From: a virus
Lineage: Duplodnaviria; Caudoviricetes
Virus record (IMG/VR): IMGVR_UViG_3300031775_000001
Coordinates: 1-64,000 of that record
Length of the DNA stretch: 64,000 nucleotides
Strand: one strand, 5' to 3'
Shown here in pieces: positions 5,146 through 40,675 of the stretch (positions within the stretch are counted from its first letter, which is position 1; each line of letters begins with the position of its first letter). The notes beneath the pieces are model-generated. The model worked only from the letters and a program-made list of their open reading frames with translations, was not told the origin of the DNA and searched no databases. The translations under genes were made by a program, and so were the position numbers.

Positions 5146-5334
5146 TTATTTAATATTTTGTATTTGTTCTTCTATCTTTGTGGCAAACTCAAGGTATTCA
5201 TCTGCCTTAATATTCCGGCGATTCATTACTTCCGTGTCTCCTCTATTTTCGGCAGACCTTGCAAGCATCCTCCATTCAAATTCTAATGTCTTCCAAACGG
5301 TGTGTTCTATTTCTAGTTGTTTTATTTTGTTCAT
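5146..5334 (-). CDS. hypothetical protein (62 aa)
   Basis: ATG lies 6 nt after a -10 box. Confidence 0.6.
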   Translation of the reverse strand: MNKIKQLEIEHTVWKTLEFEWRMLARSAENRGDTEVMNRRNIKADEYLEFATKIEEQIQNIK

Positions 5335-5340
5335 GCCGAC

Positions 5341-5369
5341 AATATAGTCCGGTTTTTATCTAATGTCAA
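5341..5369 (-). promoter_or_regulatory. sigma70-type promoter TTGACA-17-TATATT, probably leaderless
   Basis: TTGACA ttagataaaaaccggac TATATT gtcggc ATG. Confidence 0.75.
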
Positions 5370-5380
5370 ATTAAAAATAA

Positions 5381-5486
5381 TGAGAGTCGAGTCGCCACAC
5401 CCGATAAATCCTAAAGTGTCTTACCACTCATGTACCTTGCCCGCATACGCAGTTTTAGTCTAATAAGGCGTTGTAATGGACTCTCA
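5381..5486 (-). ncRNA. putative structured RNA element C
   Basis: Enclosed by a perfect 8-bp stem TGAGAGTC/GACTCTCA and followed by TTATTTTT. Contains a 16-nt motif shared with 7636-7651. Confidence 0.45.
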
Positions 5487-5493
5487 AATTGAA

Positions 5494-5581
5494 GAGGCGG
5501 TTAAGAATCGAACTTAACATGGTATCTTAACGAATCTTGCCCAACCTTTCTGTGGGAGGATACCTACCATCCTTTCACCTC
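5494..5581 (-). ncRNA. tRNA-like RNA B (acceptor stem and T-arm, no D-stem)
   Basis: GAGGTG/CGCCTC acceptor-like stem, GTTAAG-TTCGATT-CTTAAC T-arm, GGTATC/GATACC central stem. Confidence 0.55.
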
Positions 5582-5678
5582 GTAAATTGTGTTTTGTACC
5601 TCTTTCTCTCTCCCCGAAGGGTTGTAGGCGTGTTCTGACGCCTCGTTGTTCAATGCTTTCGCATCTACTGAAAGAGCA

Positions 5679-5827
5679 GGGAGTGGGAGGAATCGAACCT
5701 CCATGTCTCCAGTTCTTAGTCGCTTTCCCTCATCCTGCTCCACTCTAGAAATGAAACTAGCAAGTTGCGAGGAGATCAACCCTCTGGCGGAACTGGCGCA
5801 TTTTACCGCATTATGCTATGCACCCCC
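5679..5827 (-). ncRNA. tRNA-like RNA A with a 74-nt insert in place of the anticodon loop
   Basis: GGGGGTG/CACTCCC acceptor, GCAT/ATGC D-stem, CCAGTTC/GAACTGG stem, GGAGG-TTCGATT-CCTCC T-arm. Confidence 0.6.
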
Positions 5828-5833
5828 ACAATG

Positions 5834-5848
5834 AAATTTAAAAGAACA
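5834..5848 (-). promoter_or_regulatory. boxA-like antitermination element
   Basis: TGTTCTTTTAAATTT just upstream of RNA A; resembles rrn boxA TGCTCTTTAACA. Confidence 0.45.
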
Positions 5849-5881
5849 ATAAAAAGTATACTCTAATATACTTTATCCGAC

Positions 5882-5910
5882 ACTATAAACCAATTCTGAA
5901 TGGATTGCAA
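5882..5910 (-). promoter_or_regulatory. sigma70-type promoter TTGCAA-17-TATAGT for the non-coding unit
   Basis: TTGCAA tccattcagaattggtt TATAGT. Confidence 0.7.
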
Positions 5911-5919
5911 ATTTTATTT

Positions 5920-6228
5920 TCACTTTCTTTCATCCACCTCTCCGTATAGGCTCTTTAACTCGTATGATCTTTCCGTCATGTTGACTTCATTCTCTTCTTC
6001 TAAAGAATCGAATTCATTTACATTTGAATCTAAGAGAGAAAGTTCGTCCTCCGAGTCGCTTTCTTCCAAGTCTACGCTCAACCCCTTATCTTCAAGGGAT
6101 GAAGAAAACCCTGCGAATTCTTCATCTTGCCTAATTGCTTTTTCCAAATTGTGATATGCCGGATCAAGTGGCGAATTTGGATTGAATTTATTTCTATGAA
6201 ACTCTTTTATTTTTTCTTCGTTTGTCAT
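5920..6228 (-). CDS. acidic hypothetical protein (102 aa)
   Basis: ORF on the dominant strand. Confidence 0.6.
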   Translation of the reverse strand: MTNEEKIKEFHRNKFNPNSPLDPAYHNLEKAIRQDEEFAGFSSSLEDKGLSVDLEESDSEDELSLLDSNVNEFDSLEEENEVNMTERSYELKSLYGEVDERK

Positions 6229-6574: not shown

Positions 6575-6909
6575 TATACTAATTGTTTTGATTCTATTTC
6601 TTTTCTGACCAGTTCTACAACCCTATCCGCAATATCCAGACTTTTAGCCCCAATATTCCAAATAGAATTTAATCCGACAGGTTTATGTTGTTTCCAGTCA
6701 TAAATCGTGGCGACCTCTCCGTCTTCAAACATTAGTTGCCATTCGACTTGAGTTTTGTATCCATCTCCGTCCATAGGGACTTGGAATAAATCCATTAAGA
6801 TGTGATAGGGCGCGTTCAATATAGTTTGGAAGAATGTTCCCTCCGCTATCCAGTATGAGTTTTCTGTTTCAAATTTCATGGGTTCAATATCGCATAGATT
6901 GCCATTCAT
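6574..6909 (-). CDS. hypothetical phage protein (111 aa; DGYKTQVEW...ATIYDWK motif)
   Basis: Motif pattern seen in common small phage proteins. Confidence 0.7.
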   Translation of the reverse strand: MNGNLCDIEPMKFETENSYWIAEGTFFQTILNAPYHILMDLFQVPMDGDGYKTQVEWQLMFEDGEVATIYDWKQHKPVGLNSIWNIGAKSLDIADRVVELVRKEIESKQLV

Positions 6910-6922
6910 GTCAAATTCTTTT

Positions 6923-7114
6923 TTATGCCGAAGCTCTTTTTAATTGAATTAAGCGGAGTCTTTCGTCTGCCTCTCTTTGTTGGGCAAATAAACTATCCTC
7001 TACGACAGAACCATAATTCCTAAAGTTAGCTCTTGGAATGCTCGCCCTAGCTTTATTCTTCCGGTTGTGATCTGATTGTTTTGAAACCGCTTTCGCTTTT
7101 CTTGATATGCTCAT
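6923..7114 (-). CDS. small basic protein (63 aa)
   Basis: ORF downstream of a TTGACA-17-TATAGT promoter near 7157-7185. Confidence 0.6.
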   Translation of the reverse strand: MSISRKAKAVSKQSDHNRKNKARASIPRANFRNYGSVVEDSLFAQQREADERLRLIQLKRASA

Positions 7115-7200
7115 ATTTTTTCTTGGGTTTGTACCTTAATTTTAAAACTTGAAACACTATAATCCACCTTCCGGCGAATGTCAAATCGATATTGAATTTT

Positions 7201-7239
7201 TTCAAAATAAAAACCCTCCCCGATTTCTCAGGGAGGGTT
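7201..7239 (-). terminator. Rho-independent terminator
   Basis: AACCCTCCC / GGGAGGGTT stem followed by TTTATTTT on the minus strand. Confidence 0.8.
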
Positions 7240-7720
7240 CTAATCATAGAATGCTCGCGAACATAAGCGAACATAAGGAAAAAAATGTGTGGGGAGGGAC
7301 TACTGTATACCCTCGACTTTTCGGTGTGAACATCAGTTCAATGTTCCTACTTCGCACCACGAATAAGACTGGAAGTCTCTGGCTCATCCGATTGGACTCT
7401 ACCACCCCCACCACAGGGGAATCGTGTACCTTAGCCCGCTCACAACAGGCTTGCTCAGTCACCCACAGGAAGGATTATAAGCCCTTCCAAAGACTCTACA
7501 AATAAGGAATTCCATTAGAACTTCCACGAAATTTAAGGTTAAACCTTATTTGCAGATAAAATCGTTTGCGAGTGGGTTGACTAAGTTATGACCAGCTTCT
7601 TAACTCAACCACAATATATTTATTGTAATTATAATTAAAGTGTCTTACCACCCGCAAACTAAACTGTAAAAGATCAAAGCTCTATTTGTTTTATTTGAGT
7701 TAAGCCTTCTCAAGTTTGAA
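7240..7720 (-). ncRNA. putative ~500-nt structured non-coding RNA of unknown family
   Basis: Bounded by its own promoter and terminator. Multiple helices (7648-7659/7564-7575, 7544-7554/7497-7507, 7468-7488, 7433-7451). No credible ORF. Confidence 0.65.
7661..7676 (-). promoter_or_regulatory. boxA-like antitermination element
   Basis: TGATCTTTTACAGTTT; 15/16 identical to 40658-40673. Confidence 0.55.
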
Positions 7721-7727
7721 TATAAAT

Positions 7728-7756
7728 ACTATACTATAATGAATATTATTTGTCAA
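7728..7756 (-). promoter_or_regulatory. sigma70-type promoter TTGACA-17-TATAGT
   Basis: TTGACA aataatattcattatag TATAGT. Confidence 0.75.
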
Positions 7757-7983
7757 GTATTATTTTGCATAATTTGTATTAAATTCGATTTTATTTCTTG
7801 GGGACTCATCTCATGTATAGACCCTAATAGTCTTAGTATATCACAATTCGTATCATTTGGCTCTATGTCGTGATACTGCGTAAGCAACCATTCCGCAAGA
7901 GGGTTATCTGAATTAAAGCAACTCGGATACTTTTTTTCGTAGTCTCTTTGCTTTTTGGAGAATGGAAGTGTTGGTGTCGTCAT
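7753..7983 (-). CDS. hypothetical protein (76 aa)
   Basis: ORF on the dominant strand. Confidence 0.6.
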   Translation of the reverse strand: MTTPTLPFSKKQRDYEKKYPSCFNSDNPLAEWLLTQYHDIEPNDTNCDILRLLGSIHEMSPQEIKSNLIQIMQNNT

Positions 7984-8103
7984 AATATTATTGTTTTTTC
8001 GTTCCCTGGGAGAATTTTATTGTAAAATTTAGAGGTTTTGAGGCGTTACCGGTGTGACGCCCATCCGTAGATATAGCTGAGAACCCCCGAAACTCAGGGA
8101 AAT

Positions 8104-40569: not shown

Positions 40570-40675
40570 CGAAGCTCCTAACCCCTTAATATGAAAGGAG
40601 ATGCCCCTCGATAAAATCTAAGGGCTTTTAGTTCCCCACCGAACATGGAAGAACATCAAACTGTAAAAGAACAAA
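40570..40675 (-). ncRNA. structured leader / tracr- or omegaRNA-like scaffold
   Basis: boxA-like start, two to three hairpins, and an anti-repeat-like AAGGGGT-TA-GGAG joined to repeat 1 by a cUUCGg loop. Confidence 0.65.
40658..40673 (-). promoter_or_regulatory. boxA-like antitermination element upstream of the array
   Basis: TGTTCTTTTACAGTTT begins 2-3 nt after the tnpB stop. Confidence 0.55.

Follow-up and report, generated by a model that had tools for sequence, protein, structure and literature searches.

Weinberg et al. 2010 (PMC2864571) first described the manA RNA motif, which they had found in marine metagenomes, in T4-like cyanophages and in two gammaproteobacteria. It lay in potential 5′ UTRs and was rated as a riboswitch candidate. 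Rfam types the family (RF01745) as Cis-reg. In a July 2026 preprint, manA RNAs were seen by cryo-EM as a 60-subunit icosahedral-like cage, as decamers or as octamers, all of them built from pentamers that kissing loops hold together (10.64898/2026.07.01.735769). The cage was obtained in vitro from constructs shorter than 200 nt without a 5′ extension (10.64898/2026.07.01.735769). A second described system that bears on our locus is the leader of rRNA operons, where boxA recruits NusB/NusE and leads to a Rho-resistant rrn complex (review PMC12360218). The boxA-spacer of the E. coli rrn operons is ugcucuuuaacaauuua (PMC2724277, Table 1).

Here we describe a manA locus in a 64,000-nt stretch of IMGVR_UViG_3300031775_000001 (the window, by which we mean the whole stretch of DNA analysed). 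The window has 36% G+C, every large ORF lies on its minus strand, and its genes encode a DnaE-type polymerase, a ClpB-like ATPase, rIIA, rIIB, a clamp loader and a TnpB-like protein. Blastn (distant mode) with positions 7150-7800 found no match among 50,697 phage records, so no isolate in that set has a close relative of the locus. Protein searches against phages with DnaE and rIIA gave distant matches only (identity at most 33%). Together, these searches revealed no close cultured relative of the window phage. All features of the RNA unit are on the minus strand, which was assigned because the G-U pairs in the conserved helices fit that strand alone. We read the unit as a likely stand-alone gene of an uncultured, large marine phage. 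It would yield a non-coding RNA of about 520 nt, running from ~7722 to 7205 on the minus strand. The core of this RNA is a known family, manA, and the rrn-style 5′ leader with the two modules D1 and D2 is an additional variant architecture.

The transcription unit and its manA core

A sequence-only reading of this DNA had claimed a structured non-coding RNA equipped with a promoter, a boxA-like element and a terminator of its own. Consensus scanning, folding and comparison with relatives bore this out, and both the TTGACA-17-TATAGT promoter and the strong intrinsic terminator that it named were recovered (Table 1). Transcription is predicted to start near 7722-7720. Compared with shuffled sequences, the folding energy of the whole unit (7722-7205) gave z = -5.78 and that of the leader only gave z = -4.67.

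Table 1. Features of the RNA unit and the promoter that follows it, in window positions
Feature	Position	Strand	Description
Sigma70-type promoter	7728-7756	-	-35 TTGACA 7756-7751, 17-nt spacer, -10 TATAGT 7733-7728; 11/12 consensus positions
H-type pseudoknot	7676-7713	-	Stem 1 UUGAG 7713-7709 / CUCAA 7699-7695; loop AGGCUU 7707-7702 / GAGCUU 7682-7677
boxA-like element and spacer	7660-7676	-	UGAUCUUUUACAGUUUA; core GAUCUUUUACA 7675-7665
Module D1	7564-7659	-	Predicted by folding; ~96-nt domain, 12-13-bp closing helix 7659-7647/7576-7564, GUAAGA-loop hairpin inside
Module D2	7495-7556	-	Predicted by folding; long hairpin, 12 bp 7556-7545/7506-7495, conserved capping interior with UUCG(G)UGGAAGUUC
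manA RNA core, Rfam RF01745	7284-7488	-	76.1 bits (gathering score 55.2); E = 1.4e-17; spans the whole model, positions 1-192
Pyrimidine-rich linker, manA to terminator	7242-7283	-	42 nt, read directly
Intrinsic terminator	7203-7241	-	14-bp stem (7 G-C) at 7241-7210, 4-nt loop, U-tract
Next promoter, TTGACA-17-TATAGT	7156-7184	-	Serves the 63-aa ORF 7114-6923; marks the end of the RNA unit

The same reading had called the RNA unidentified and had proposed an Rfam search. That label did not hold. Cmscan of the whole window returned two matches, a tRNA-Arg at 10467-10394 and manA at 7488-7284, and the 3′ 205 nt of the unit are thus a full-length match to RF01745 above the gathering score. No other Rfam family was found in 6900-8100 at E up to 5, save for terminator-driven noise. 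The helices GGAAGG/CCUUCC, AGCCUG/CGGGCU and GUGGG/CCCAC, which had been assigned to the unidentified RNA, are indeed present, but they are the first hairpin, an inner hairpin and the long-range closing helix of the Rfam manA model.

We collected relatives of the locus with the pattern of the last hairpin as the search key. This gave 14 IMG/VR loci (contigs of up to 214 kb) and about 60 further marine metagenome loci, which make up 71 distinct sequences. All 20 relatives that were tested matched RF01745, at 68-90 bits. In an alignment of 68 subfamily sequences, 97.9% of the positions in the 56 pairs of the manA core were paired and 23 pairs had changed on both sides, compared with at most 53% paired in slid controls. 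A close relative is L001/L002 (one IMG/VR contig), which shares the promoter, is 100% identical in manA and terminator and is 84% identical in the leader. The promoter is also found at the equivalent place in most of the 71 distinct relatives. In L001, manA and the terminator are set apart by two additional inserts (L001:3555-3640), one of 65 nt that resembles a hairpin, with a C(UUCG)G loop and the ends GUCGG/CCGAC, and one of 12 nt. We considered a tRNA-like reading of the L001 insertion and rejected it, as ARAGORN found no tRNA there. Contigs of cellular genomes gave 46 pattern matches, only one of which was a true manA. This sole cellular subfamily match (L293:6900-7250) lies on a contig of 18.8 kb from the bin of a Candidatus Neomarinimicrobiota MAG. 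It may point to a host, or the contig may be phage DNA placed in the wrong bin, and it was left out of the evidence on the host.

The window locus shares with the described manA RNAs the conserved blocks GUGACUGA, UAAGG, GUGGUG and ACUGAUG, the closing GUGGG/CCCAC helix and the setting in marine phage DNA. It differs from them in several respects. The last hairpin is GAGGG-UAUACAGUAGU-CCCUC in the window subfamily and GUUGG...CCAAC in the classical cyanophage loci, and some peripheral helices are altered. The subfamily is found on large, non-T4-like phage contigs (up to 214 kb) with a DnaE-type polymerase and rIIA/rIIB. Its members have a leader of 45 to 400 nt with pseudoknot, boxA and inserted modules, whereas a consensus promoter directly abuts manA in 67 of 95 classical loci (98 loci of this cyanophage type were collected). 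Finally, the window locus is a terminated unit of its own, in contrast to the description of manA as a 5′-UTR element: the terminator (7241-7210) and then the promoter at 7184-7156 precede the next ORF. The placement in 5′ UTRs is an annotation habit and not a structural criterion, and membership in manA is unaffected by it. The locus belongs to a distinct manA subfamily.

Most relatives have this arrangement too. A terminator follows within 170 nt 3′ of manA in at least 62 of 69 relatives, and our simple rule missed terminators in several of the remaining seven. In 58 of the 69, a TTGAC -35 box was found no more than 45 nt from where the terminator U-tract begins. Among the classical loci, a tRNA gene (tRNA-Asn, tRNA-Gly or tRNA-Tyr) lies 5-52 nt 3′ of manA in 10 of 95, and a conserved hairpin AGACCUAAGAUGCAACU...GGGCAGAUGGUCU with a U-tract follows manA in 19 of 95. 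Because of these terminators, new promoters, abutting promoters and downstream tRNA genes, we conclude that manA behaves as an RNA gene, often with RNA-only neighbours. In many classical loci (L016-L123), the -35 TTGACA was located inside the loop of the preceding terminator hairpin.

The 5′ leader and its exchangeable modules

The 5′ 234 nt of the unit are kept in about 70 relatives of marine viral or metagenomic origin, and cmscan of 6900-8100 at E up to 5 found no Rfam match for them. They are an uncatalogued conserved structure, a modular leader joined to manA and not a separate large RNA class. Nearly all relatives with enough upstream sequence share the same order: promoter, UUGAG-loop-CUCAA hairpin, A-rich stretch, G[A/U]UCUUU[A/U]A[C/U]A, a variable insert and manA.

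The hairpin is part of a larger fold. Its stem (stem 1) is invariant in 49 leaders, and its loop pairs with the bases immediately 5′ of the boxA-like element, from which CUCAA is separated by the A-rich linker 7694-7683. This pairing covaries across 19 distinct loop sequences, with matching partners such as GGGG/CCCC, GAGGC/GCCUC, GGAU/AUCC, GUCU/AGAC and AAGCUU/AAGCUU. The mean energy of the cognate loop duplex was -4.47 kcal/mol, compared with -1.84 ± 0.39 for permuted partners, and none of 2000 permutations was as good. The covariation of loop and tail therefore indicates an H-type pseudoknot (7713-7677).

The boxA-like element that follows is kept in 49 distinct leaders. The window sequence is identical to the E. 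coli rrn boxA-spacer at 14 of 17 positions and the subfamily consensus UGAUCUUUAACAUUUUA at 15 of 17, E. coli serving here as a reference that may not be the host's. It is also promoter-proximal, about 46 nt after the predicted start site of an untranslated transcript. We are inclined to think that it works as a boxA, and binding of Nus factors to it is predicted from the sequence. In common with the rrn leader, the window has a promoter-proximal, untranslated transcript in which a structured element precedes a boxA-like sequence. The two differ in that the upstream element is a covarying pseudoknot in the window and a simple boxB hairpin in rrn. Moreover, the window transcript is just ~0.5 kb long and ends at an intrinsic terminator. 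Two further untranslated units of the window begin with the boxA-like motif, in near-identical form at 40672-40662 and as a variant at ~5851-5838, so that all three sites are at the start of untranslated RNA.

Two modules, D1 and D2, lie between the boxA-like element and manA. The sequence-only reading had proposed a 12-bp helix (7659-7648/7575-7564) and an 11-bp helix (7544-7554/7497-7507); both were predicted by our folding as well, the second with 11-13 bp at ~7556-7545/7506-7495, and are kept in relatives. In an alignment of 11 sequences, helix 1 of D1 was 100% paired with three pairs changed on both sides, and helix 3 of D2 was 100% paired with five. Taken together, the 28 pairs of D1 and D2 were 99.7% paired and eight of them had changed on both sides, while slid controls reached at most 51%. 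Neither module had an Rfam match at E up to 5, and the interior pattern of D2 had no match in the IMG/VR scan. D1 and D2 recur in 10 other sequences (L001, L137, L139, L157, L162, L172, L179, L195, L203 and L247).

Across the relatives, the slot from boxA to manA holds from 0 to ~340 nt of modules and falls into discrete length classes. Among 61 sequences, 24 had the basal slot of ~13 nt, 17 had ~60-76 nt, eight had ~100-126 nt, seven had ~160-176 nt (the class of the window), four had ~240-265 nt and one had 355 nt. Five of the longer leaders (L137, L139, L172, L179 and L203) contain a third module, D3 (GGGGCAACAGCAGAAGUGCUGGGUUGA...UCAACUGCCCC), and L139 has a fourth module 5′ of D1; no Rfam match was found for either at the loci tested. 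In five other leaders (L078, L129, L138, L142 and L217), the slot is filled by module X. In the window, module X is found at 5484-5378, 2 kb from the manA unit, where it closes a different RNA unit. The length classes and the presence of module X in another unit imply that the slot accepts exchangeable, independently folding modules.

The unit that harbours module X (5375-5910, minus strand) is a second RNA-only unit, with the boxA-like sequence UUGUUCUUUUAAAU near 5851-5838 and two tRNA-like elements that have canonical T-arms (GGAGGUUCGAUUCCUCC at 5702-5686 and UUAAGUUCGAUUCUUAA near 5515). Module X ends it and is followed by a U-tract and the next promoter. A permissive Rfam search of 5250-5950 gave a T-arm fragment match alone. 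Module X is homologous to the inserts of the five manA leaders mentioned above (E down to 2.6e-12), and its helices covary. On the minus strand, D1 (7651-7636) and module X (5427-5412) have an identical 16-nt stretch, GUGGUAAGACACUUUA, a GUAAGA-loop hairpin, and the D1 of L001 is without this stretch. The identity suggests a recent exchange of a patch between the manA unit and the module X unit. The third boxA-like site, UUGUUCUUUUACAGUUU (40662-40672, minus strand), lies directly 3′ of the stop of a TnpB-like ORF (41887-40676) and 5′ of a repeat array. It matches the boxA region of the manA leader at 16 of 17 positions.

RNA-library evidence and competing explanations

Six marine RNA libraries contain a small share of the window stretch. 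Contigs from four of them (four marine studies) cover 7268-7482, three at 100% identity and one at a depth of 45.6, and one further contig lies on 6903-7212. Such contigs give neither strand nor ends and the libraries may contain DNA, so they are a weak indication that the manA part is transcribed. No contig from the four libraries fell on the leader (7489-7722). As the contigs are ~150 nt and DNA carry-over is possible, this gap shows neither processing nor absence of the leader. In run X16, a 'joint' from 7402 to 7457 that encloses 78 other letters was considered as a splice and rejected; it represents a relative with a different peripheral helix.

Our preferred explanation is that of a stand-alone RNA gene and not a 5′-UTR switch, because at least 62 of 69 relatives are terminated, usually with a new promoter after the terminator. 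In the mechanism that we propose, host sigma70 RNA polymerase would start at the strong promoter, and the nascent boxA and spacer would bring in NusB/NusE of the host, together with NusA and NusG, in the manner of rRNA operons. The Nus complex would shield the untranslated transcript from Rho and may aid its folding. The manA core would then take its two-junction structure and probably self-associate through loop-loop contacts into closed oligomers, by analogy with the family members seen by cryo-EM. The product would act in trans as an RNA particle, and not as a switch for the downstream gene.

It is also conceivable, although we consider it unlikely, that D1, D2 and manA are independent small RNAs made from one precursor operon and cut apart by RNases, as in rRNA and tRNA operons, and that the 520-nt form is transient. 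The modules are exchangeable and number 0 to 4 per relative, module X is found in the manA leaders of five relatives but in a separate tRNA-like unit here, a boxA leader is typical of multi-RNA operons, and the spacers between the modules are short, AU-rich and single-stranded. All of these would fit a precursor. The RNA-library contigs on the manA part alone point weakly in the same direction, but this cover says little, given contigs of ~150 nt and the contribution of relatives of the most conserved part. Apart from the final form of the RNA, this explanation matches the preferred one.

The published view of manA as a riboswitch-type cis-regulator would mean that a ligand sets the formation of the terminator at 7241-7210 and hence the read-through downstream. 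It has the Cis-reg type of Rfam and the riboswitch candidacy of Weinberg et al. 2010 (PMC2864571) on its side, and an ORF is reached without a terminator, ~30 nt after manA, in just two relatives (L124/L141 and L127/L144). Furthermore, the 3′ strand of manA, CCCUCCCC, has the same sense as the 5′ arm of the terminator, and both could compete for the G-rich 3′ arm. However, the linker of L001 has grown by 65-nt and 12-nt insertions to 119 nt, compared with 42 nt in the window, while aptamer and terminator are identical. The terminator is therefore not tightly coupled to the manA fold and is without the overlap with the aptamer that is expected of an expression platform; an overlapping or competing terminator at a fixed short distance from the aptamer was not found. 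In addition, a separate consensus promoter precedes the downstream gene, an arrangement shared with 58 of 69 relatives, and the sequence after manA varies widely (tRNA genes, terminators and unrelated ORFs). For manA, no ligand has come to light in the 16 years since its description, and the RNA forms homo-oligomers in vitro free of ligand (10.64898/2026.07.01.735769). Taken together, a riboswitch seems very unlikely at this locus.

There is hardly any chance that a small protein is encoded here. Two frames are open in the window, one of 118 aa on the plus strand (7149-7505) and one of 72 aa on the minus strand (7462-7244), but neither has a Pfam match. By a count of stops in fixed frames of the manA alignment, which is a rough test given that indels shift the frame, relatives do not keep them open. 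The substitutions are of the compensatory kind that preserves base pairs, and the region fully matches an RNA covariance model. These two overlapping ORFs had already been suspected to be spurious in the sequence-only reading, rightly so by the Pfam search and the frames of the relatives. Within 7722-7489, no minus-strand ORF of at least 30 aa was found.

RNA-only assemblies and the natural form of manA

The earlier suggestion that the RNA belongs to a GOLLD- or ROOL-like class, or to a new one, fared less well. Neither GOLLD nor ROOL was matched by Rfam, in the window at the gathering threshold or in 6900-8100 at E up to 5. The comparison is apt solely through the RNA-only assemblies that the 2026 preprint reports for manA. 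The likeness is that these RNAs are phage-borne, highly structured, often near tRNA genes and stand-alone RNA genes, and that they form closed RNA-only assemblies, those of manA according to 10.64898/2026.07.01.735769. The manA core differs in being much smaller, and its cage consists of pentamers of a ~200-nt RNA. For the window RNA, the 234-nt 5′ extension could hinder the assembly of a cage.

The core family was already known, and the gain from this locus is in that sense incremental. The cage preprint is silent on how manA is produced naturally, and the locus supplies full-length natural transcripts for assembly tests. Together with its ~70 relatives, it represents a natural form of manA: a dedicated, terminated RNA gene with a strong promoter, an rRNA-like anti-termination leader and a slot for modules. 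The finding suggests that most manA members are mislabelled as cis-regulatory. The boxA-like leader may also point to a Nus-factor-dependent expression of a phage structural RNA. A bolder and quite unlikely idea is that the slot between boxA and manA is a natural cargo or adaptor position, whose modules (D1, D2, D3, X and others) remain joined to the manA core and are displayed on the manA cage or enclosed in it. If it were true, large marine phages would have RNA-only particles with swappable functional heads, which might serve, for example, as decoys for host RNA-binding factors.
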